From Alphaproteobacteria bacterium (GTDB taxonomy: Bacteria > Pseudomonadota > Alphaproteobacteria > Rs-D84): a stretch of DNA of 64,000 nt. Every line of letters begins with the position of its first letter. The stretch's first letter is position 1. The stretch lies in assembly GCA_017463185.1 (NCBI GenBank), contig JAFTPS010000014.1, positions 154,546-218,545 on the forward strand. The letters are read 5' to 3'. This document shows positions 1,240-16,715 of the stretch, piece after piece. A model generated the notes under the pieces. It was not told the origin of the DNA, searched no databases, and was given only the letters and a program-made list of their open reading frames with translations. The translations under genes were made by a program, and so were the position numbers.

Positions 1240-1490
1240 ACTACACCCTTTGTAAAAAAAACACCGCCAATAAAGGATATTGACGGTCGGGCGTTTCCAA
1301 AAATCATACTGTAAATGACTCCCATTGCGTTCAGGTTGCCCTTATTGTATTACAACGGGTGGCCCGACCAAAGGTCAGGCATAACGATGCGAATGCACCA
1401 TTTGCAAAAGTGGATAACGATGCATATCGCACCGTACAGTATGGGCTTTTGGAACCCGAACCCGCTAGTCCCCTATCGGATTCAATACTT
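1240..1490 (-). promoter_or_regulatory. Conserved structured 5' leader, copy 1 (terminator hairpin plus U8 abutting the RBS; upstream complementary antiterminator segment)
   Basis: In RNA orientation the leader reads ...GGGUUCGGG...CCUGACC..GGUCGGGCC...UAUGAUUU..GCCCGACCGUCAAUAUCCUUUAUUGGCGGUGUUUUUUUU-ACAAAGGG-N7-AUG. GGUCGGGC is complementary to GCCCGACC, which overlaps the terminator stem. The same architecture and motifs recur at 9328-9595 and 16493-16715. Confidence 0.55.
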
Positions 1491-1534: not shown

Positions 1535-2188
1535 CTAAATTGTTTCATCAACAAGCTTAGATATAAAATCTACAAAATCACTGGAAAATTTTATATCCAA
1601 ATTTTCATTACAAGAGATTAAATTTTTAATATTTTCTATATTTTGGAAATCTAGCCAACATTCATCACCTGTTTTACATGGGATAATCCTATCAGCCTCA
1701 CCTTTATAAAAGGCAGCAACCATAGGATTAATAAAATGATTATTTTGTTCACAAAAATCCTGCCACAACATAACAACATCGCCTCCATGACACATAGATA
1801 AAAAATCTTCACCATTCATGTAATTAAAACATAATTTTACGGGCAAATTAGCAACCCTTAAACCACGAGGCAAATTTACAAGAGCACGATTTATTTCTTG
1901 CTGACACATTTCTTTTATTTCTTCTAAAGATAAGTTATTATATTTTCTCTTAAATAGATCTACATCTAACCAAATACACAGCTCATCAAAATCACCTTTT
2001 ACAGATTTTAAAGCATCCTTTATTCTTGATATATAATTACTTACTGTTATACCACCACATAAATTACTAGACATTATAGTAACAATTTGCTTATCTGTAT
2101 ATTCTCTAAAAAACTTTTTCAATACTTTTATATACCTTTCTTCGCTTCCACCCTCACAAACCACCAAAATATATTTATATACACACAT
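1535..2188 (-). CDS. RloB/TOPRIM-like small protein (AbiLii / DUF4276-like partner of an ABC-type ATPase)
   Basis: N-terminal motif ILVVCEGGSEERYIK matches the RloB/OLD-TOPRIM (v)EGxxE signature. 217 aa; its start overlaps or abuts the upstream ATPase gene (2188 vs 2198). The gene is very AT-rich compared with its neighbours. Confidence 0.55.
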   Translation of the reverse strand: MCVYKYILVVCEGGSEERYIKVLKKFFREYTDKQIVTIMSSNLCGGITVSNYISRIKDALKSVKGDFDELCIWLDVDLFKRKYNNLSLEEIKEMCQQEINRALVNLPRGLRVANLPVKLCFNYMNGEDFLSMCHGGDVVMLWQDFCEQNNHFINPMVAAFYKGEADRIIPCKTGDECWLDFQNIENIKNLISCNENLDIKFSSDFVDFISKLVDETI

Positions 2189-2197
2189 GTCAAACCC

Positions 2198-3541
2198 CTA
2201 ATCCAAAATAATAGGCTGCCCCCTATACATCCCAGAAACATACCTATCTCTGAAATTAACCTCATTCCTTTTTTCTATAGAAGATAATCTAACCAAGACA
2301 GAACCGTTTTTTTTGTTTTTATTAACAAAGGCAAATTCATCTGTTTTATAAATCTTATTTTCTAAAATATCAGTTGTATGCAAAGTAGCTATTAGCTGCG
2401 CTCCATTCTTATTCAAATTTTTATATTTAAACCTTTTAATTAAACCTTCTAAAACTTTTGGATGTATAGAACGATCCATTTCATCTATTATAATCAAAAC
2501 ACCTTTTTCAACTGCCCCTAATATTAAACCAGCCAATTTAAATATTTCTTGAGTACCAACGGATAATTCATTATGAAAATTAAAAGGAACATCTTTTCCT
2601 GTATCATCTTCTAAATAAGGAATAATATCATCAACATAAACCTTGTCTTCATCAAAATTTTTTATAAAATCAAACGGAATTTCAACATTCATCAAACTCT
2701 CTTGAGAATACTCTTTATATTTATGCTCAAAACGTTTAACATCTACATCAAACATCTGAATAAACTTTGATATTTTATCCAAACTAACACATATATCTTC
2801 ATCCTTATCAGAATCAGCTAAATATCTAATAGAAGAAAATGCTCTTAAACTATCTTTTGCTGAAATTATTTTTATATTATTAGAAATATAATAAAAAACA
2901 TCCGATAACCTACTATCTAAGTTAGGAAATTGCCAAACAAATTTTTCTAAAAAAGTATTTTTTTGATAATCTTGTCCATCCTTACCACGAACAATAGCAG
3001 CAGTTTCGTATATTTTATCTAACAAAACATAATCAAAACCATCACAGTCAATATTATCAAAATAAGTTTTTTGATTTTCTATTTTGTATATAGATATATT
3101 ATTAGTTAAATCAATTAATTCTTCATAAACAATGGAATTCTCATCAAAAGCCAAAATATAACTATACTTACGTGAATTAACAAAAAATTCTATACTAAAA
3201 CACGTTGGTTCTTTTATAAAACGCAATTTGTTTGGTTGATACGAAGAAAAAACCAAACCATCTACTACAATCTCACGAAAAACTTTTATCGCCTTAACTA
3301 TATTACTTTTACCACTAGCATTAGGACCATATATACATTCCACAGGAACAACCCTGTCAGCAATTTTTTTTGTTGGTTCCAATGCATAAATTACATCTTT
3401 CTCAACCAATCTTTTTTGGCCAAAAGACATATCCAACGTCAAATCAACAATGGATTTAAAATTTTTTATATTTAATCTATACAACATGTTTTTTACCTTA
3501 GGCGAGCATATTATACCATAAAAAAGAAAAAAATTCAACAA
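2198..3541 (-). CDS. AAA_21/ABC-type ATPase (AbiLi / RloA / PARIS AriA-like defense ATPase)
   Basis: Walker A GPNASGKSN near the N-terminus. A long helical middle region, then Walker B/D-loop LIIIDEMDRSIHP and an H-loop-like ATLHT near the C-terminus; this split ABC ATPase architecture is typical of the AAA_15/21 family. Forms an operon with the TOPRIM-like gene. Confidence 0.65.
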   Translation of the reverse strand: MLNFFLFYGIICSPKVKNMLYRLNIKNFKSIVDLTLDMSFGQKRLVEKDVIYALEPTKKIADRVVPVECIYGPNASGKSNIVKAIKVFREIVVDGLVFSSYQPNKLRFIKEPTCFSIEFFVNSRKYSYILAFDENSIVYEELIDLTNNISIYKIENQKTYFDNIDCDGFDYVLLDKIYETAAIVRGKDGQDYQKNTFLEKFVWQFPNLDSRLSDVFYYISNNIKIISAKDSLRAFSSIRYLADSDKDEDICVSLDKISKFIQMFDVDVKRFEHKYKEYSQESLMNVEIPFDFIKNFDEDKVYVDDIIPYLEDDTGKDVPFNFHNELSVGTQEIFKLAGLILGAVEKGVLIIIDEMDRSIHPKVLEGLIKRFKYKNLNKNGAQLIATLHTTDILENKIYKTDEFAFVNKNKKNGSVLVRLSSIEKRNEVNFRDRYVSGMYRGQPIILD

Positions 3542-3630
3542 TAAACAACTTTTTTGTTTATATTATAAAAAAACAAACACAACAAACACAAAAACACATA
3601 CAATAATATTATTATAAACAAAAAAATTGT

Positions 3631-4803
3631 TTATAATACCACAAACCCCAGCATTTTATCTGTGGCGGTTTGCATAGAATCACGAATTGGGTCAACGGTC
3701 AGGCGACTATAAACCTGTGTTGCGCTGGTGGATTTATGGCCAAGTGATTTACCAATAACCGGCAAACTGGCACCCGATATTGCCTGCCACGACCCCATTG
3801 TGCGACGCAGGTCATGAATCCGCATATCTGTGATGTTTGCCGCCTTTAACAAAGATTGCCACGGACGTTTCGGGTCTTCCAGATGTCCACTGGCACTTTT
3901 ACTACTCGGCAATACCCAACCTTTTTTCTTGCCTTGATTGATTTTTAACAGCAATTCACGCAACTGATTCACCATTGGAATCTGCAACGGTTGCCCACCT
4001 TTGGAATCAGGCACATATATCAACCCCGACGTAAAATCAACATGTTCCCAGCGCATAGTCAGCACATTATTCCGCCGCATCCCAGTCATCAGCGATATCA
4101 TCACATAGTTTTTGAACACATCGTTTTTACATTCCGCCAAGGCCGTCCAGAACCTTTTTAATTCATCACCATTCAAGAATCTGTCCCGACTTTTTTCTGT
4201 AAATTTACGAATTCCGCCGGCCGGATTACCACGTAACCCCATTAAGCCCTTTTTCACTGCAATCACATACATATGCTTAATCAACGACAACACCCGATTG
4301 GCCGTATATGGACTGTGTGTTTTACAAGTCTCCGCATGCAGGCGTTCAATCTCGTCCGCTTTGATACTTAACAACTTGCGATTATGAAATTGATTCAACC
4401 GGTGCTTGAACACACTGTCATCATTTACAACCGAATGTTGCTTTTTATAGATTGTGGAATATTCGGGTTTATAGATATTTTCATAAAACTGGCGCAGGGT
4501 CATATCATTCAGATTTTCCCGTCTTTGAATACTGGGGTCTGTGCCATTAGTCGCCATTTCTTTTAAGCTATGCGCCTGCCGCCGTGCATCACACAGTTTA
4601 ATCTGCCCCACACGCCCGATTTTTATACGCTTTGGTGTGCCTTGGAATTTCATATAGGCATAATAAGTCTTTGCCCCGCCATAGGTCACAATAACACACA
4701 GACCATCATGACTGCCCGTGTCATAATAAACCGCCTGCCCCGATGCAGGAACGGCTAAATTTTCCAACGCCCGTTCTGTAAAATTGATACGATTTGACGA
4801 CAT
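3631..4803 (-). CDS. int: Tyrosine site-specific integrase (P4-type)
   Basis: 390 aa. C-terminal catalytic residues R..HDLRRT..HKSTSATQVYSRL (R-H-R-Y), with an N-terminal arm-binding region. The gene directly abuts the Bro-N gene and lies about 1 kb from a tRNA 3'-end fragment. Confidence 0.85.
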   Translation of the reverse strand: MSSNRINFTERALENLAVPASGQAVYYDTGSHDGLCVIVTYGGAKTYYAYMKFQGTPKRIKIGRVGQIKLCDARRQAHSLKEMATNGTDPSIQRRENLNDMTLRQFYENIYKPEYSTIYKKQHSVVNDDSVFKHRLNQFHNRKLLSIKADEIERLHAETCKTHSPYTANRVLSLIKHMYVIAVKKGLMGLRGNPAGGIRKFTEKSRDRFLNGDELKRFWTALAECKNDVFKNYVMISLMTGMRRNNVLTMRWEHVDFTSGLIYVPDSKGGQPLQIPMVNQLRELLLKINQGKKKGWVLPSSKSASGHLEDPKRPWQSLLKAANITDMRIHDLRRTMGSWQAISGASLPVIGKSLGHKSTSATQVYSRLTVDPIRDSMQTATDKMLGFVVL

Positions 4804-5634
4804 TTATTCTTTAGCCACACGCTTTAACAGTTTTGAATTTGTGCCCGACACAACCCTTTTTCCGGTTTCTTGTTCCAGCTGTAATCGTGCCTGACGGGCA
4901 ACATTACCGCCACGCTTGGCCACCGCCATATTTTGTGCCAGTCCCATTGGATTTTCATTTTTTGCAATCTCGGTCGCAGACAGTTCCGCCAACATATTCA
5001 GAACCAATTCAGCATTCGTCATATTATCACGCAAGGATTCTTTCTTTAGCCCTTTGTGCTGTTTATATTCTTTGGTCTTCATACCCGACCAAGAACGTGT
5101 AATTTCATCTGTCAGCAAGGCGTATTCCAATCCTTTCTTAATTCCACCCTTGTCCCATTGATTGGTCAGGTCTTTACGAATTTCAATAGAACGCAACCGC
5201 TGGGCAATCCATTCATCCGAATAACCCAACCGCTGGTAATAATTCAATGCACGTTGAATTGCGATTTCGGGGTCTGATATTTCATCAATTCTTTCACTAC
5301 CCACACTGGCCAGCCACAACTTAAATGGTTCTGCTTTCTTAGATGGCACAGATTGAATCAAGCGCAACAACTGTTCTGTGTCCGCCACATCGGTCATACG
5401 CAACTTGCCATCTGGTGCAACCAATTTCAACTGGTTACAATTTGTAACCGTTTCATTTCCTTCCGCCTTCAGACGGCTTTTCAAAACCTTCCAATAATTA
5501 CGTGAATGTTGATAATCCGATTCCGTCAATGCTGCAATAACATCAACAATGGAAAAATACCACTTTTCAGCATCCGCATCCCATTGGGTTCTGATATTTG
5601 TATCTTGGAACAGTTTTAGTGTCGTATCCGTCAT
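4804..5634 (-). CDS. Bro-N domain protein (DinD / phage antirepressor KilAC-like)
   Basis: N-terminal Bro-N-like segment WDADAEKWYFSIVDVIAALTES...YWKVLKSRL and a C-terminal KilAC-like region. 276 aa, a length matching the DinD family. Contiguous with int. Confidence 0.55.
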   Translation of the reverse strand: MTDTTLKLFQDTNIRTQWDADAEKWYFSIVDVIAALTESDYQHSRNYWKVLKSRLKAEGNETVTNCNQLKLVAPDGKLRMTDVADTEQLLRLIQSVPSKKAEPFKLWLASVGSERIDEISDPEIAIQRALNYYQRLGYSDEWIAQRLRSIEIRKDLTNQWDKGGIKKGLEYALLTDEITRSWSGMKTKEYKQHKGLKKESLRDNMTNAELVLNMLAELSATEIAKNENPMGLAQNMAVAKRGGNVARQARLQLEQETGKRVVSGTNSKLLKRVAKE

Positions 5635-5819: not shown

Positions 5820-5889
5820 GTTTTAATAAAAAATGCCCCTAATCCGGGGTGTTTTTTATTAAACCAAAATTATTTTATCCCAATCAAAA

Positions 5890-5914
5890 AATCACCCAAA
5901 TGGGTGATTTTTTA
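5890..5914. terminator. Bidirectional intrinsic terminator (tcaccc-aaa-tgggtga flanked by T/A runs)
   Basis: Perfect 7-bp stem followed by a T-run, immediately downstream of the lipoprotein operon end. Confidence 0.5.
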
Positions 5915-6931
5915 TCATTTTGATATATCAGATATCAATATTTCCATCAATTCATCTGACACTTTTTTTACCAATGCATTTTCAACTGTATTACACGATG
6001 CGCCAGATTCATAATGAATTGACTTTGAAACAGAATCAGTGGACACAATTTCCATTGTTGCAGTTTCTATAAGTTTATAGGAAACAGTCAATTTAGCATC
6101 TGTTTTTTGAACTTTTTCGCCTGTCAATTGAATAGTTTTATCTGTACGATTGATATTAAATCTTTCAATTCTACCAACCAACAGATAATCAGCTATTTCC
6201 AATTGTTTTAATTTATTTAAATTTTCTCGTTTTGCTATATCATCATTCAGTAATCCTAATTCTTTTGCTTGTTTATCAAAATTACTTCTGTCGACAACGG
6301 TCAATTTTTTTGACCTAGAGATATCCTTTTCCCACGCTGTTATTAAATCAGCATCTGTTAAACAATCCCATTTTTTCTTGCCTTCAAACCCTGTTATCAC
6401 CACACTATATTTTGATTTTTTTACCAAATCTGGTGAAACATAGTCATCTGTGACAAATACTTTTGCTTCAATCTCGACTGTATATTTTCCTTTTTTTTCT
6501 GATACAGATTTTACAGAATATCCCTCTATTTTTCCTTGATATTTTTGGTTGATATTTCTTTCTTCTATGCGCAAAGATTCATCAATTTTTCCACCTTTGT
6601 AATCTACAAAAACATCTTCCTTATAATCTGCTGAAACCTGTTGTTTATCATCATCAAACCAACCATCCGTAATTGATTTAAACCAAGATTTCTTTTCAAC
6701 CTTTGCTTTTATTTCACGTGTATCTTCCAGATGATAATCAGCAGAAACTATTTTCGCACTGTCTGCACCACCAGACACCACAGAAGTCTGTCTTATAGCA
6801 TTATCAATCGCATCAATAGTAGCTTCATATTCTGATTTTCCGTATCCCGTTGCACCTACATTTTGAATTTTTGCATTTGCATAATTTATAACACCGCAAA
6901 ACATTAAAAATACAATGAAAAATTTTTTCAT
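5915..6931 (-). CDS. Secreted protein, possibly CsgG/LpoB-fold lipoprotein-operon component
   Basis: Signal peptide MKKFFIVFLMFCGVINYANA (start taken at the internal Met). C-terminal ...KYSVVITGFEG..ADYLLVGRIERFNI.. resembles CsgG-family motifs. Last gene of the four-gene operon. Confidence 0.4.
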   Translation of the reverse strand: MKKFFIVFLMFCGVINYANAKIQNVGATGYGKSEYEATIDAIDNAIRQTSVVSGGADSAKIVSADYHLEDTREIKAKVEKKSWFKSITDGWFDDDKQQVSADYKEDVFVDYKGGKIDESLRIEERNINQKYQGKIEGYSVKSVSEKKGKYTVEIEAKVFVTDDYVSPDLVKKSKYSVVITGFEGKKKWDCLTDADLITAWEKDISRSKKLTVVDRSNFDKQAKELGLLNDDIAKRENLNKLKQLEIADYLLVGRIERFNINRTDKTIQLTGEKVQKTDAKLTVSYKLIETATMEIVSTDSVSKSIHYESGASCNTVENALVKKVSDELMEILISDISK

Positions 6932-6991
6932 TTTTACATCCTTTTTTGTAAAAAAACACCCAAACAAAATTTGAGTGTTTTTTATATTCGT

Positions 6992-7594
6992 TTACCAGGT
7001 TTGAGTATCTTTATCCACCAACTTTTTAATAATCTTATAATCTGACCATAATTCAGTACCATCTGATACATCCGTCAAAGATAAATCAAAAGTATATTCA
7101 ATCAGTTTATTTCTGCGATCAACATTTGTATTTTTTTGAGAAATACGCCCTGTCAGTGATAAATCAAATGCTTTTACTGTATTATTTTTCTTTACTGTTG
7201 ATTTATCAACCAACGAAGATTCGGCCAATTCTCTGGACGCAGCAACATCTGAATTTCTGTTTGAACCAAAAGAATTAGTTGCTTTTACATTTCCACTGCG
7301 TCTGACTTCTTTGGTTATAAACATTGTTAAATCGCGCATATTCAGCCGTTGTTGTGTATCATTTACAATTTCCGAAACCTTCATAATATATGGCTGACCA
7401 TTTGGTTTTGGGCTGGCCAATTCATGTGCCAGCATATCATTTAACATACTTTGGGCAGCAACTTCAAAATCATTACTTGATAATGTTGCAGATACAAATT
7501 CCTGGGATTCTGAATCAGTCAATACTTTTGGACTAGAAGAACATCCCACCCCCATAAAAGCTATTGCAATCATTAAATAAAAAACTTTTTTCAT
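6992..7594 (-). CDS. Lipoprotein (DUF799/LpoB-like?)
   Basis: Lipobox MGVGC|SSS. 200 aa. C-terminal pattern LSLTGRISQ...FDLSLTDVSDGTELWS is reminiscent of LpoB/CsgG-like folds. The family assignment is tentative. Confidence 0.4.
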   Translation of the reverse strand: MKKVFYLMIAIAFMGVGCSSSPKVLTDSESQEFVSATLSSNDFEVAAQSMLNDMLAHELASPKPNGQPYIMKVSEIVNDTQQRLNMRDLTMFITKEVRRSGNVKATNSFGSNRNSDVAASRELAESSLVDKSTVKKNNTVKAFDLSLTGRISQKNTNVDRRNKLIEYTFDLSLTDVSDGTELWSDYKIIKKLVDKDTQTW

Positions 7595-7607
7595 TTTTTT
7601 CCTTTTA

Positions 7608-7979
7608 TTATTGTTCTATTTTTGTATTTGATACATAAACTTTATAATCCACAGCCTTGCTTGATGGCGCGACAATGGTCCAATAAAAAGGCAATCCTTT
7701 TTTAACTGTCTGTTTTACATATTTAGACAACAAAGTATTTATTTTTATTCCACTATCATTAAACCAAGCTGTTGAATAATACAAATCTGTATCATTATAC
7801 ACTTCACCAGAAACGGTTATTTTCATATTTCCATTTTCTACATATTCAACCCCATTGATACGAATATTTTTTATACAATCGTCTGGCAGGCTATCTATAT
7901 GTATATGTTCAGGATTCAGATTTTGGGTGGTCGTACAACCACCCAAAACAATTCCTAAAATACAAATAATTTTTTTCAT
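7608..7979 (-). CDS. Small lipoprotein (DUF4810-like?)
   Basis: Lipobox LGGC|TTT. 123 aa. Sits in the operon between two other lipoproteins. Confidence 0.4.
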   Translation of the reverse strand: MKKIICILGIVLGGCTTTQNLNPEHIHIDSLPDDCIKNIRINGVEYVENGNMKITVSGEVYNDTDLYYSTAWFNDSGIKINTLLSKYVKQTVKKGLPFYWTIVAPSSKAVDYKVYVSNTKIEQ

Positions 7980-7992
7980 AATTTACCTGTAT

Positions 7993-9327
7993 TTAGTTCA
8001 GTTTACCAACAACTATTGCTGGCACTGCATTTGCCGTTGGGATACGAACAAATACAATTGCATTTTCAATACCTTCTGGGATAACAACTTCTAAGCCATC
8101 ATTGATAAATAATTTTCTATCAACAGGCATATTGACACGTGCCGTTTGAATTTCTGTTGGTATAGAATCCCAAGATCTTAAATCCCACGGTTTCTTTACA
8201 CTCATAACCCCGGTTACTGCCGCCGCTGTTGCTGCTGCCCTAAACGGAGTATCCTTAGCCGCTTCATTTGCTGCATATCCTGCTGCAGTTGCGGCGGCAA
8301 TTTTTCCAATTTCAAACGCTACTGAACTTATAATATTACGTGTCTTATATTTGTTATAATCAGTTTTAACAACAGAATCAACATTTACTAATTGTTGTGT
8401 TGTAACCGTTGTATCGCCAGATTTAACACTTATTGTTTCTAATGCTTTGGTTCCTGGGAATACATCAGGGATAGTCAGTTCAATACCCGCTTCAACCCCT
8501 AATGCTGACAATGGTTGTGTCAAAGGTTTCAAAACATCTGGTACCAATGAACGTTTTTGCAATTGTCCAACCATACCGTTTTCAAAAACAACATAAACAC
8601 TTCCTTTTTTCAAACCAGCAACATCTGATTTAACAAAAGTATTTTTTGGTGCAAATTTTGCAACTCTGCTCATACCATTGTTCGCATTACTATAATCACC
8701 GCTGGCACCATCATACAACGCCATCAACCAAGTAGTATATGGATTTGCATAATCTTTCATTGCGGTAATATCATCATCCAAAGACGATACATCTTTACTA
8801 ATGGAATCAGTAATAGAATCCAAACTTGGCACATTGATACCAAATTCTTTTAATATTTTTTGATCTTCTTTAAATTTCTCTTGTTCTTTTGCAATTTCAT
8901 CACTATTTTCGCTTATATTTTCTTTTTGTAAATCATATACCTGATTAAACACTTGCTTTGCATAAGAATCATCATTTGCAATCAGTCCAATTCCTTCATA
9001 AGTCTTGAACATAATCTTTTCATAACTTTTGATTTTATATGATGAATCTTCATCGGTTTCACCCTTTAATATAGAATTTACCGGTGAAAAACATGTTTCA
9101 AGTCCTTCTGCATTATTTGCCCATAAATATGCATTACCACACTGCAATCCACCCAAATAAACATTATTCGGTTCTTGATTTAATACAGTTGCCTTAGCCA
9201 TCTTTTCTGCTGCAACTTCGTAATTACCATTTGAAAAATCCTCGCGATATTGTTTGGAAATTTCTGCGTAATTACCATTACAGGCCGCCAATACCAGACA
9301 TCCTGTCAATAAAGTTATTTTTTTCAT
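7993..9327 (-). CDS. Lipoprotein, first gene of the four-gene envelope operon
   Basis: Start taken at MKKITLLTGCLVLAAC (lipobox LAAC). Ala/Thr-rich C-terminus. Immediately preceded by leader copy 2. Confidence 0.45.
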   Translation of the reverse strand: MKKITLLTGCLVLAACNGNYAEISKQYREDFSNGNYEVAAEKMAKATVLNQEPNNVYLGGLQCGNAYLWANNAEGLETCFSPVNSILKGETDEDSSYKIKSYEKIMFKTYEGIGLIANDDSYAKQVFNQVYDLQKENISENSDEIAKEQEKFKEDQKILKEFGINVPSLDSITDSISKDVSSLDDDITAMKDYANPYTTWLMALYDGASGDYSNANNGMSRVAKFAPKNTFVKSDVAGLKKGSVYVVFENGMVGQLQKRSLVPDVLKPLTQPLSALGVEAGIELTIPDVFPGTKALETISVKSGDTTVTTQQLVNVDSVVKTDYNKYKTRNIISSVAFEIGKIAAATAAGYAANEAAKDTPFRAAATAAAVTGVMSVKKPWDLRSWDSIPTEIQTARVNMPVDRKLFINDGLEVVIPEGIENAIVFVRIPTANAVPAIVVGKLN

Positions 9328-9595
9328 TGCACATCCCTTTGTTAAAAAATAAACCGTCAATGGAATTTGACGGTCGGGGAGTTAGCAAATCATATATGTC
9401 AATGATTCTGTCGCTTTTAGGTTTCCCCTGTTGTATAACGAACAGCCCCCCGACTGATTTACAGTCAGGGATAAATAACGACACAAAACCACAGGAATGA
9501 CATCGGATAACGATGCCATACGCAATTTTGCACCGGACATATAAAGGCTTGCTACAGCCCCGAACCCAATTCCCATTGGATTCATTTCCTAGTTT
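9328..9595 (-). promoter_or_regulatory. Conserved structured 5' leader, copy 2
   Basis: RNA orientation: GGGUUCGGGG...CCCUGAC..CAGUCGGGGGGCUGUUCGUUAUACAACAGG...UAUGAUUU...CCCCGACCGUCAAAUUCCAUUGACGGUUUAUUUUUU-AACAAAGGG-N8-AUG. Terminator-like hairpin plus U-tract. GUCGGGG is complementary to CCCCGAC. Confidence 0.55.
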
Positions 9596-9620
9596 AACAT
9601 AAAATATATAAAAAAGGCAA

Positions 9621-9650
9621 AAACAAAAAACGCCGCCAATCGGCGGGTTT
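9621..9650. terminator. Intrinsic terminator (cgccgccaatcggcggg flanked by A- and T-runs)
   Basis: GC stem-loop with a poly-A upstream and poly-T downstream. Lies downstream of rpmJ on the minus strand. Confidence 0.5.
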
Positions 9651-9785
9651 TTATTTTTTCTTGAATCCCTGTTTCGCTTTGAATTTTGGATTATCAGGGT
9701 CAATCAAGATAACTTGCTTTCCACGACGGATTTGTTTAACATTACCGCGTTTCTTCCAAGCCTTTAAGGAACTTAAAAATTTCAT
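9651..9785 (-). CDS. rpmJ: 50S ribosomal protein bL36 (type B, non-zinc form)
   Basis: A 44-aa ORF absent from the ORF track (below the size cutoff): MKFLSSLKAWKKRGNVKQIRRGKQVILIDPDNPKFKAKQGFKKK. This closely matches the YkgO/bL36 type-B pattern MKV.SSLK..K.R....IV.R.G...VI.K.NPRFKA.QG. It sits between the leader and a terminator. Confidence 0.8.
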   Translation of the reverse strand: MKFLSSLKAWKKRGNVKQIRRGKQVILIDPDNPKFKAKQGFKKK

Positions 9786-10101: not shown

Positions 10102-10398
10102 ATGAAACAGCAGGTTTTGAAAGCATTGGCAAATCCGGCGCACATATTTTATGTGCCATATAATTTAGCTGTGCTGAATTTTATATCGCTGTTCATTATT
10201 TTTGCGATTATTTTTATAACAGCGATGGTTGTAACGCGTGGAAAGATGGCGATAAATCCACTGTATTTCTTGGTTGTTGTGATAATAACACATTCAATAA
10301 TTGCAATTTTTTCTAAGCGGGACCCACAACTGGGCCAAATTGTAACGGCAAAAATTCAGTTGATGAAACGTAAAATACCCAGAAAATTGGCGGCATAA
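10102..10398 (+). CDS. virB3: Type IV secretion system protein VirB3-like
   Basis: 98 aa with two TM segments. Size, topology and position directly upstream of virB4 support the call. RBS ggaggg lies 8 nt upstream. Confidence 0.6.
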   Translation: MKQQVLKALANPAHIFYVPYNLAVLNFISLFIIFAIIFITAMVVTRGKMAINPLYFLVVVIITHSIIAIFSKRDPQLGQIVTAKIQLMKRKIPRKLAA

Positions 10399-10401
10399 GA
10401 T

Positions 10402-12828
10402 ATGAACACTATAAACGGATTTTTTGATTACTTTGCGGGCAGTGGATTTCCAATCACTTTGACTATTTTGGTGATGGTTGTTTTGTTTGTTTTTATTGTT
10501 TTAATGATGTTTGTACCAACTTTGACGCGTCGTATATTTCCGCATTTTGGATATGCCAAGTACTCAAATTACCTGCCGTTTGGAACGGTTTATAATGATA
10601 ATTCTATGTCATTGACCGATGGTGGATTGGTGCGCGCATACCGCGTGGCTGGTGTTCAAACCAGTATGCAGGATGACGCAACCAAAGAAAAATTTTTAGA
10701 ATTACGGGCGCAGTTATTTAATCAGATACGCGACCCGAATGTTGTTTTGCGTTTTTATATGGTGCGGGACGCGGCCGACGAAAATACGGATTATGAATTT
10801 GATCAACCGACTTTGCAAAGTATTTATAATAAATGGCGTGGCCAGGGATTAAAAATTTTCTTGAACAGTTATTATATAACCATATCTGTTTATGGACCAA
10901 ACGCGCGCGAAAGGTTAAATCAATATGGTAATTACATAGAATCAATATTAGCGGCGTATCGTCCACAAGTTTTACGTAATGACAGTTCTGATAATATGGC
11001 ACGATTTTTTGGTCGTATATTATCCCCTATTTCAAAGCCTGCACCTATGCGTGCTGATAATAATATCGCAAATCTGACAACGGTTGATGATATTGAATTT
11101 TTGCGTGATGGTATTGTACGTTATATCAGTGGTGGCAATCAATCCTTTGCAGCGTGTGTTTCTTTCAAGATATCACCGGATTATTTGGACGAAGAATTCT
11201 TTGATACTGTATCAACCATCCAGACAGAAATGATTTCTATGAATGGTTTTCGTATTATGGGTAATGCTGATATAGAAAGTACTATCCGTCAACGCCGCAG
11301 TACGGCTGATGAAAACACAACATCAACCGAGGAACAAATATCATCAGCCCAAAGTGCAATGGATGAAAATATATCTGGTAATCAAAGTCTGATAAATTAT
11401 TATCCTTTATTTGTAATATTTGGTGCAACCCGCGAAGATTTACAAAAATCAGTTGCAGAATTTAAAAAAATAGCCGCACAATTTGGTATTTCACCTATTG
11501 TTGAAACATTTGCATCCCAGGTTTCTTGGTTTGCACAAATTCCGGGATTTGATACATTTCCGCGCAGTTTTAAATTATTATCCCGCGCGGCGGCGATTTC
11601 AATTCCTATGTCAACCCAGCCACGTGGTGTTGAAAATTCTGATTGGGGGCCTGGCCCATTGGTTGTTTTTCCAACCGCCCAGGGAACACCGTACCAGTTC
11701 CAATTCCACGTATCGGACAAGCCTGCCGCCGTGGCACATACACTTACAATTGGTCCAACCGGTGGTGGTAAAACAACCTTGTTCAGTTTTCTGATAGCGC
11801 AATCTTTACGTCATCCAAAACTAAAAGCGTTTTTCTTTGATCGTAACAAAGGTGCGGAAATATTCACATTGGCAGTTGGTGGAAAATATATCACTATGCA
11901 GGGCAAAGAAAAAAATACAGACCCCATGGCACAAAATTTCCTGACGCGTTTAAACCCACTTAAAATGCCAGATACTGCGGCAAATCGCGCATTTTTACGT
12001 CGCTGGTTTGCGATTATATCGGGCCAGAATGATGCGGCATCGGCCGATGAAATCGCACGCGCGGTATCTGTGAATTTTGATTATTTGTCCGACCAGGATA
12101 AATTGTTAAAAAATTTATGGGAAAGTTGTTTTTCTTCATCTGGTAATATGCGCCCTGCCCTGAAAAAATGGATTGACCCGTTGCAGTACGGTGATATGTT
12201 TAATGATACATCTGATACATTAGATTTACAGGCGCGTCTTACAACATTTGATTTTACCGATATTTTACAAGATGAAACATTGGCCCCGGCGGTAATATCG
12301 TATATATTGCACAGAATAAATAATATCACTGTATCGGGTGGTAATCCTTCGTTGATTATGATTGACGAAACCGCTCCTATGTTGGAAAACAAAATGTTCC
12401 GTGACAGTTTTATAGCCGGCCTGCAAGAGGGGCGTAAAAATCGCCAGGCATACATGGCTGCATTCCAGCGCGCAAATGTTCTGGATAAGTTAGGAATTGG
12501 TGATGTGGTTCGTGGCCAAGCCCAGACAGTCTTGTTTTTCCGCAACCCAGCGGCAGACAGCAACGATTATGCACATTGGAATTTAAATCCATTAGAAATG
12601 GCGTTTATCCAAGGCAAGGCTTATCCTAACTTAAAACGTGCTTTGTTATTATCACGTCCTGTCACAGGTGAATCTGTGATTTTAAACACAGAATTGGGTG
12701 GATTGGGCAATTTATTGCGTTTATTTGAATCTGGGCGTTCGTCTGTATTACTGGCCGAAGAATTATATAAAATGTACGGCAATAATTTTGTAAATGAATA
12801 TCTAAAAAAACAGGGCGCGGCCGAGTAA
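10402..12828 (+). CDS. virB4: Type IV secretion ATPase VirB4/CagE/TrbE family
   Basis: 808 aa with N-terminal TM helices, Walker A GPTGGGKTT and Walker B IMIDETAPML. Overall architecture matches VirB4. Confidence 0.85.
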   Translation: MNTINGFFDYFAGSGFPITLTILVMVVLFVFIVLMMFVPTLTRRIFPHFGYAKYSNYLPFGTVYNDNSMSLTDGGLVRAYRVAGVQTSMQDDATKEKFLELRAQLFNQIRDPNVVLRFYMVRDAADENTDYEFDQPTLQSIYNKWRGQGLKIFLNSYYITISVYGPNARERLNQYGNYIESILAAYRPQVLRNDSSDNMARFFGRILSPISKPAPMRADNNIANLTTVDDIEFLRDGIVRYISGGNQSFAACVSFKISPDYLDEEFFDTVSTIQTEMISMNGFRIMGNADIESTIRQRRSTADENTTSTEEQISSAQSAMDENISGNQSLINYYPLFVIFGATREDLQKSVAEFKKIAAQFGISPIVETFASQVSWFAQIPGFDTFPRSFKLLSRAAAISIPMSTQPRGVENSDWGPGPLVVFPTAQGTPYQFQFHVSDKPAAVAHTLTIGPTGGGKTTLFSFLIAQSLRHPKLKAFFFDRNKGAEIFTLAVGGKYITMQGKEKNTDPMAQNFLTRLNPLKMPDTAANRAFLRRWFAIISGQNDAASADEIARAVSVNFDYLSDQDKLLKNLWESCFSSSGNMRPALKKWIDPLQYGDMFNDTSDTLDLQARLTTFDFTDILQDETLAPAVISYILHRINNITVSGGNPSLIMIDETAPMLENKMFRDSFIAGLQEGRKNRQAYMAAFQRANVLDKLGIGDVVRGQAQTVLFFRNPAADSNDYAHWNLNPLEMAFIQGKAYPNLKRALLLSRPVTGESVILNTELGGLGNLLRLFESGRSSVLLAEELYKMYGNNFVNEYLKKQGAAE

Positions 12829-16492: not shown

Positions 16493-16715
16493 ATTTTCTC
16501 CCTTTGGTTAAAATTTAAACCGTCAGAAATGACGGTCGGGGTGGTTGATAAATCATAGTTTAGGAAATGACTCTGTTGTCTTTGGGAAAATCCCTGTTAT
16601 ATAACAAACAGCCCCCCGACCGTTATAGGTCAGGGATATTTCAGTGTGTAATAAACACTGCCTAAACTATTGGGTTATCACACCCCGAACCCACATCCCT
16701 GCAGGTTCATTAAAA
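16493..16715 (-). promoter_or_regulatory. Conserved structured 5' leader, copy 3
   Basis: RNA orientation: GGGUUCGGGG...CCCUGACC..GGUCGGGGGGCUGUUUGUUAUAUAACAGG..UAUGAUUU..CCCCGACCGUCAUUUCUGACGGUUUAAAUUUU-AACCAAAGGGAG-N4-AUG. Confidence 0.5.

Follow-up and report, generated by a model that had tools for sequence, protein, structure and literature searches.

A COG3014-DUF1425-LpoB lipoprotein module with a fourth FlgT/CsgG-fold gene and a conserved structured leader RNA in an uncultured alphaproteobacterium

Organization of the locus

The window analysed here is a stretch of 64,000 nucleotides (nt) from an uncultured member of the Alphaproteobacteria (GenBank assembly GCA_017463185.1, contig JAFTPS010000014.1, positions 154,546 to 218,545 of the forward strand), and all coordinates below are those of the window. 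Four consecutive minus-strand open reading frames (ORFs), at coordinates given beforehand, occupy the region 5915-9360. They are named g1 to g4 in the direction of transcription, and with their terminator and an internal hairpin are arranged as follows (sizes in amino acids, aa).

7993-9327, minus strand: g1, lipoprotein of the COG3014 family, 444 aa, helical and TPR-like in its N-terminal domain and alpha/beta in its C-terminal one; homologue of Cj0089 and HP0018
7608-7979, minus strand: g2, small lipoprotein of the DUF1425/YcfL type, 123 aa; homologue of Cj0090
6992-7594, minus strand: g3, LpoB-family lipoprotein with a short linker, 200 aa; homologue of Cj0091
6951-6983, minus strand: A/U-flanked hairpin between g3 and g4 (-14 kcal/mol, z -4.2) with the look of a leaky terminator
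5915-6931, minus strand: g4, secreted two-domain periplasmic protein of the signal peptidase I type, 338 aa, with a C-terminal domain like those of CsgG, LpoB and FlgT-N
5885-5914, minus strand: intrinsic terminator closing the operon after g4 (-15.6 kcal/mol, z -5.2)

The initial annotation had described three lipoproteins and one secreted protein in a row, which was borne out, and had given g1 and g4 lengths of 455 and 350 aa, which were not retained. Those lengths derive from the farthest TTG starts, at 9360 for g1 and 6967 for g4. Both were rejected, since they lie inside RNA hairpins and upstream of conserved MKK starts. Because of this, and because alignments with homologues of the two proteins begin at the downstream ATG (MKK...), the likely starts are the ATG codons at 9327 and 6931; those of g2 and g3 are likewise probably ATG codons, at 7979 and 7594.

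Signal peptides were read directly from the translations. In g1 the signal peptide MKKITLLTGCLVLAAC is followed by N (lipobox LAAC), and C16 is nearly invariant among homologues. The signal peptide of g2 ends in IVLGGC followed by T (lipobox LGGC), that of g3 in FMGVGC followed by S (lipobox GVGC), and the respective cysteines, C15 and C18, are invariant among homologues. The signal peptide of g4 ends in INYANA followed by K, a signal-peptidase-I type site, and no conserved cysteine was found at this point in 29 homologues. As judged from these sequences, g4 is not a lipoprotein.

Intergenic gaps of 13 nt separate g1 from g2 and g2 from g3, and a hairpin and terminator scan of the locus found no internal terminator between these three genes. 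The gap between g3 and g4 is 60 nt. It holds the hairpin listed above, from which 20 nt containing nothing but a ribosome-binding site lead to the ATG of g4. At the same junction relatives mostly have gaps of 9-19 nt without a hairpin.

Family assignment of g1, g2 and g3

By sequence comparison g1, g2 and g3 form a module of the cj0089-cj0090-cj0091 type known from Campylobacter jejuni, in which a COG3014 TPR lipoprotein is followed by a DUF1425/YcfL lipoprotein and an LpoB-family lipoprotein. The C. jejuni genes were recovered through a primer given in PMC3100323, on a metagenome contig carrying dcuA-cj0089-cj0090-cj0091, where the second and third of the trio matched DUF1425 (67 bits) and LpoB (154 bits). 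Families, order and tight spacing are the same, and the sizes are 453/122/207 aa in C. jejuni and 444/123/200 aa here. Identity is only 23-30%, however, and the C. jejuni operon has no fourth gene with a FlgT/CsgG fold; Cj0092 was considered as a homologue of g4 and proved unrelated by comparison. Nor is a structured leader reported for that operon, which CmeR regulates by binding its promoter (PMC3100323). The C. jejuni trio is co-transcribed, as determined by reverse transcription PCR (PMC3100323). The identity and architecture of the module as described here are regarded as highly probable.

For g1 there was no Pfam match, and NCBIfam contained no family for g1, g2 or g4. A profile of g1 homologues matched 2773 representative clusters in a library of 1.84 billion proteins, and one of the matches falls in the same 90% cluster as a protein named 'COG3014 family protein' by NCBI. 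The g1 profile aligned with Cj0089 over 396 columns (hhalign 99.8%, E 3.6e-29). In the AlphaFold2 (AF2) model of g1 (predicted local distance difference test score, pLDDT, 85.7), TPR-like helices span residues 20-241 and the C-terminal half is alpha/beta. Foldseek returned generic TPR matches only for this model (AspH, BamD and NlpI, all with E >0.04) and no full-length counterpart in the PDB.

As a single sequence g2 scored 24.1 bits against DUF1425 (PF07233), under the cutoff of 28.3. Its profile matched the DUF1425 structure 3O0L (E 1.3e-3) and more weakly 4GIO, which is Cj0090 (E 0.19), and aligned with Cj0090 by hhalign (96.5%, E 7e-10). The assignment of g3 is direct, with 92.9 bits against PF13036 (LpoB family) and a full-length BLASTP alignment with Cj0091 (30% identity, E 2e-27), both proteins ending in TW. 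No solved relative of Cj0091 was detectable by sequence. Profile searches of the PDB with g1, g3 and g4 gave no useful match, nor did single-sequence searches with g2, g3 and g4 give a meaningful one. A tblastn search of plasmids with g1 found nothing, and repeating the word-indexed protein search with a profile of diverse COG3014 members added no matches to the list.

Conservation of the gene order

The order g1-g2-g3 is kept in all 18 alphaproteobacterial loci retrieved, which come from gut metagenome-assembled genomes (MAGs) near Candidatus Enterousia, and the full order g1-g4 in 15 of them (L001-L015); since it recurs in this way the arrangement is not due to chance. No g4 is present in the remaining three (L016-L018), in C. 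jejuni, or in the loci L024 and L025. The large first lipoprotein had been taken for an addition to a known operon. In fact g1, the Cj0089 homologue, is the core member and is present in every related locus, and g4 is the variable one, a recurrent but optional partner. The logic of the initial annotation is thereby reversed, the large lipoprotein being core and the CsgG-like protein optional.

Nine distant COG3014 contexts were sampled for neighbours. An LpoB-family gene follows in eight of these, with DUF1425 in between in six. Four of the contexts (L020, L023, L027 and L028) have a CsgG-family gene next to the trio. The 416-aa neighbour in L023 matched the g4 family over both domains (98.9%, E 2.6e-17), and the one in L027 over the CsgG-like domain only. 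Two COG3014 proteins carry further C-terminal domains. P0052 (L028, 2499-4694) is fused to a chaperone domain like the N-terminal part of SurA (SurA_N, E 2e-10), and P0065 (L029, 543-2657) to a weakly matched outer-membrane beta-barrel domain (25.3 bits, under the cutoff). The 198-aa gene that follows the L029 fusion was compared as a possible LpoB-like gene, with a negative result.

Further partners that recur beside the trio in distant lineages are a PEGA-domain protein, a DUF6844 protein, and members of the CsgG family (292-293 aa) that have an additional beta-rich domain at the C-terminus (L020 841-3009, L027 657-1538, L023 7396-9993). A small lipoprotein of 87-93 aa is syntenic upstream of g1 in several relatives (L001 7649-7930, L015 5033-5296) and is not found in the window.

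Domain structure of g4

The AF2 model of g4 (pLDDT 69.5) has an N-terminal beta/alpha domain with a disordered insertion and a C-terminal domain predicted with pLDDT 75-93; residues 51-132 fall below 50. Cysteines C190 and C313 are invariant among the 29 homologues. The best structural matches found with Foldseek were FlgT (3W1E, E 6.3e-9, TM-score 0.32) and the LPHT-ring chain 8Z5N_0, followed by CsgG (about 3e-6), GNA1162 (DUF799; 9.5e-6), PelC, HpaA and LptE. The C-terminal domain of g4 thus resembles the folds of CsgG, GNA1162, PelC and FlgT-N. Unlike the lipoproteins with these folds, g4 is not lipidated, has an extra N-terminal domain and has no detectable DUF799 or DUF4810 partners. Several members of this fold group form rings under the outer membrane. 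On the evidence of the model, the fold of g4 is one common to pore and non-pore periplasmic proteins, and g4 may oligomerise.

The structured leader RNA

Directly upstream of g1, between it and the terminator of the preceding L36 gene, lies a conserved RNA leader, in agreement with the earlier suggestion that the operon stands behind a structured leader. This leader and two further copies found in the window are as follows.

9591-9596 and 9615-9620, minus strand: promoter-like hexamers of the leader, read from the sequence (-10 TAAACT, 9596-9591; -35 TTGCCT, 9620-9615)
9344-9586, minus strand: structured leader RNA of about 240 nt (nhmmer 192.7 bits; minimum free energy -94.5 kcal/mol, z -6.0)
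9344-9375, minus strand: leader terminator, hairpin and U-run (-11.8 kcal/mol, z -5.0), ending 17 nt before the ATG of g1
1254-1486, minus strand: second leader copy (nhmmer 149.1 bits), directly before an autotransporter beta-domain gene at 1239-13 (PF03797 match)
16510-16711, minus strand: third leader copy, one internal hairpin missing (nhmmer 141.9 bits), directly before a gene at 16492-15914 for a 192-aa outer-membrane beta-barrel of the 8-stranded type (PF13505, OMP_b-brl)

Twelve copies were found with an nhmmer profile, three in the window and nine in relatives, and each of the twelve is followed directly by an envelope gene on the same strand. In relatives the leader precedes g1 directly, or an operon made up of a small lipoprotein, a barrel and g1-g4. 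The initial annotation had linked the module to a specific regulatory input through the leader; the leader itself is not specific to the module, since the two other window copies precede outer-membrane protein genes.

The consensus consists of a 5' hairpin, a long-range helix around three to four hairpins and an intrinsic terminator at the end. The RNAalifold consensus has 62 pairs, 20 of which show compensatory double changes, and controls slid along the alignment had 1-4 such pairs. Paired cells amounted to 97.1%, compared with 87.0% in shuffles. The leader is a genuine structured RNA. Two ORFs of 67 and 141 aa overlap it (9278-9703); a small protein-coding region was rejected on the grounds that compensatory base changes and non-triplet insertions and deletions fit an RNA.

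The terminator stem is conserved, with two compensatory pairs (helix 9). Across the copies 15-30 nt lie between the end of the terminator and the start codon, enough for a ribosome-binding site only, and there is no room for a promoter between the terminator and g1. Since its end lies 17 nt before the ATG of g1, it is presumed to be a point of attenuation, and the leader is inferred from its sequence to be a cis-acting attenuator. An invariant GUCGGGG has two possible partners, CCCUGAC in the consensus fold and CCCCGAC, a segment that overlaps the terminator stem; a choice between them would be a plausible switch. Promoter-like hexamers occur at a fixed distance upstream across the copies. Those of the leader before g1 fall below the scan threshold, and better examples are present in relatives (TTTACA...TATAAT in L004, TTGATT...TAGAAT in L010).

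No Rfam family was assigned. The best match, to sRNA-Xcc1 (RF02221), reached 36.4 bits (E 0.001) against a gathering threshold of 53, and four other copies gave no match. The small RNA sRNA-Xcc1 is associated with integrons in Xanthomonas. The 3' 90 nt of the leader (9364-9455, minus strand) are weakly similar to it, with a G-rich closing helix and AUACAA and GAAA motifs in common. The leader differs in being about 240 nt long, with additional domains on its 5' side, and in that covariation favours a different pairing of GUCGGGG. A distant kinship of the two RNAs is possible.

The relatives that carry copies include L004, L010, L011, L012, L014 and L015. In public annotation the g1 homologue of L004 (8001-9581, 526 aa; likewise in L005, L006 and L013) is an ORF that runs through the leader RNA at 8008-8251. 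It is considered an annotation artefact, the leader RNA having gone unrecognised. A 44-aa L36 paralogue lies directly upstream of the window leader (9651-9785, minus strand). It scored 25.7 bits against PF00444, just under the cutoff of 26.1, and was read as type B; a promoter-like site (TTGATT-16-TATAAT, 9837-9810) and a terminator (9652-9625) are its own.

Proposed role of the module

The COG3014-DUF1425-LpoB trio is a widespread but functionally obscure module, which is here extended by g4 and by a conserved leader RNA. The interpretation preferred is that the lipoprotein trio and the secreted g4, under the structured leader, would act as a periplasmic scaffold coordinating the outer membrane with peptidoglycan, to which a probability of roughly 0.55 is assigned. 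The functional part taken by itself, a scaffold below the outer membrane by which peptidoglycan remodelling is coupled to that membrane, is proposed tentatively, as possible rather than probable.

This interpretation is drawn from the phenotype and partners of HP0018, the role of LpoB, the leader common to outer-membrane protein genes, and the SurA-like fusion. In Helicobacter pylori, cells deleted for hp0018 have an altered shape and form outer-membrane vesicles in chains; HP0018, the Cj0089 homologue, co-precipitates the peptidoglycan hydrolases AmiA and MltD (PMC11394524). The COG3014 fusions to a SurA-like domain and, weakly, to a barrel domain in other lineages are a further hint.

In the mechanism envisaged, all four genes would be transcribed by read-through of the leader terminator, with attenuation by a ligand or factor, and the weak hairpin before g4 would keep its expression lower than that of the trio. 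The proteins would assemble under the outer membrane, where the TPR lipoprotein g1 would be the scaffold on which peptidoglycan-remodelling enzymes are held, with the LpoB-fold g3 and the Ig-like g2 as membrane-anchored partners and g4 as an accessory, possibly oligomerising subunit. The module, expressed together with outer-membrane proteins, would keep outer membrane and peptidoglycan coordinated and would not be a curli-type secretion pore.

Several observations weigh against this interpretation. The source is an uncultured MAG, in which the role of the module is a prediction. No adherence or colonisation phenotype was reported for a cj0089 mutant, and Cj0091 was taken to be an adhesin (PMC3100323); AmiA and MltD were named as HP0018 partners on the basis of co-immunoprecipitation and modelling (PMC11394524). 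The linker by which LpoB of Escherichia coli reaches its target, penicillin-binding protein (PBP) 1B, is missing from g3, and the N-terminal half of the g4 model includes the low-confidence residues 51-132. The hairpin that precedes g4 could detach its expression from that of the trio, and the leader could be an independent small RNA whose terminator is just leaky. The closest g1 relatives (L001, L007 and L008) carry the module without the leader, as do L016-L018, so the link between leader and module is clade-specific and such regulation is not obligatory.

With 2773 clusters matched by the g1 profile the trio is widespread, and its carriers include pathogens of the genera Campylobacter and Helicobacter. 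The present locus adds three handles on it, namely a recurrent fourth partner with a FlgT/CsgG fold, fusions of COG3014 to SurA-like or barrel domains, and a covarying leader, found in one clade, that is common to outer-membrane protein genes. These place the module in outer-membrane and peptidoglycan homeostasis. The leader itself, a well-supported structured RNA outside Rfam, is the most interesting by-product. A bolder proposal, which is speculative and on balance unlikely, has two parts. The leader would represent a new attenuator or riboswitch-like class, and the autotransporter, the small beta-barrels and the module would belong to an outer-membrane regulon defined by it in uncultured Alphaproteobacteria of the gut. 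The module with its FlgT/CsgG-fold partner would be a scaffold or ring of the periplasm, widely distributed and so far unrecognised, that serves outer-membrane biogenesis or the coupling of membrane and peptidoglycan; the COG3014 fusions point in this direction too.

Alternative explanations

The alternative that survives best, although improbable, is that g3 is an LpoB-type activator that stimulates a class A PBP as peptidoglycan synthase, with g1, g2 and g4 as helpers. In E. coli LpoB reportedly activates PBP1B, and is said to do so through UB2H, a domain limited to some Gammaproteobacteria. The g2-g3 pair mirrors E. coli ycfL-lpoB, in which a DUF1425 gene is immediately upstream of the LpoB-family gene, and both are remotely homologous to their counterparts here (g2 with YcfL, 75%, E 2.6e-5; g3 with LpoB, hhalign 75%, E 2.5e-5), the second alignment covering half of the domain. 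The E. coli locus differs in having no COG3014 gene and other flanks (hinT, thiK and nagZ). The 'LpoB' equivalog model TIGR02722 gave g3 111.7 bits, only 1 bit over its cutoff of 110.55. The periplasm-spanning disordered linker of E. coli LpoB, about 55 aa, aligns to gaps in g3, where about 23 conserved residues that are not of low complexity lead from the lipid cysteine to the domain. The only PBP among the scanned window ORFs is of class B (PBP_dimer and Transpeptidase, 27534-25702). A peptidoglycan-related role has been proposed for H. pylori HP0018 and HP1457 (PMC11394524), which is in keeping with such an activator.

A CsgG-like secretion channel in the outer membrane, with g4 as the pore and the lipoproteins as accessories in the manner of CsgE/CsgF or DUF799/DUF4810, is a poor candidate. 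The initial annotation had likened the operon to the CsgG/DUF799/DUF4810 lipoprotein operon and to LpoB, and had named a nonameric pore fold of g4 as a point to check. The LpoB and CsgG parts of the comparison stood. Against PF03783 (CsgG) g4 scored 29.9 bits, over the gathering threshold of 20.8, through residues 205-308, the match being limited to profile positions 49-155 of 210; CsgG was matched by 25 of the 29 homologues and LpoB by 15. The other part fell away, as DUF799 and DUF4810 were unmatched by all four proteins at E<=1 in Pfam (one of the 29 g4 homologues touched a GNA1162-like profile, E 0.36), and for this reason the locus is not a CsgG/DUF799/DUF4810 operon.

Structural comparison likewise gave FlgT and not the CsgG pore as the top score, with CsgG and GNA1162 further down, and the fold is found also in LpoB, FlgT-N, PelC, LptE and HpaA, which are not pores. 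CsgG is a lipoprotein; g4 has no lipobox. The long strands of its C-terminal domain (residues 249-289), read directly in the monomer model, contain no lipid-facing amphipathic hairpin pair. CsgG-family genes do recur beside the trio in distant lineages. At the present locus the neighbours are COG3014, DUF1425, LpoB, Bro-N and integrase genes, with no csgE, csgF, csgA or csgB partner found nearby, no CsgE/F match and no candidate substrate gene in the operon. Given the missing lipid anchor and the partial CsgG match, a curli-like nonameric pore is unsupported.

It is about equally doubtful that the genes form a surface adhesin operon, as put forward for Cj0091. A cj0091 mutant of C. jejuni shows reduced adherence to INT 407 cells and weaker early colonisation of chicks, and Cj0091 fractionates with the outer membrane (PMC3100323). 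The adherence defect may be an indirect effect on the envelope, however; the LpoB fold lies in the periplasm in E. coli, free-living as well as host-associated phyla carry the module, and Cj0089 fractionates with the inner membrane (PMC3100323).

Under a flagellar reading, g4 would be the counterpart of FlgT in the Vibrio H-ring, and the lipoproteins its partners in an outer ring or disk associated with the flagellum. This is suggested by the top structural matches, by weak Pfam matches to FlgT_M (2/29 homologues) and FlgT_N (1/29) and by the confinement of HP0018 to Helicobacter species with sheathed flagella (PMC11394524), but is very improbable, since the TM-score is just 0.32, the domain order differs (the CsgG-like domain is C-terminal in g4), no flagellar genes were seen among the scanned window and locus neighbours, the trio occurs also in E. 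coli-type ycfL-lpoB contexts without flagellar relation, and HP0018 is dispensable for sheath and motility (PMC11394524).

Neighbouring genes

The flanks of the module have the character of mobile elements. An AAA_21/RloB pair, a tyrosine integrase and a Bro-N protein lie on one side (1535-5634, minus strand) and an isolated VirB3-VirB4 pair on the other (10102-12828, plus strand). The rest of the window consists of housekeeping genes, among them those for DnaG, TopA, PheT, PNPase, IleS and MutS. In relatives the module is located in other chromosomal contexts, next to YceG/flavodoxin, TatD/ThiF or UvrA genes.

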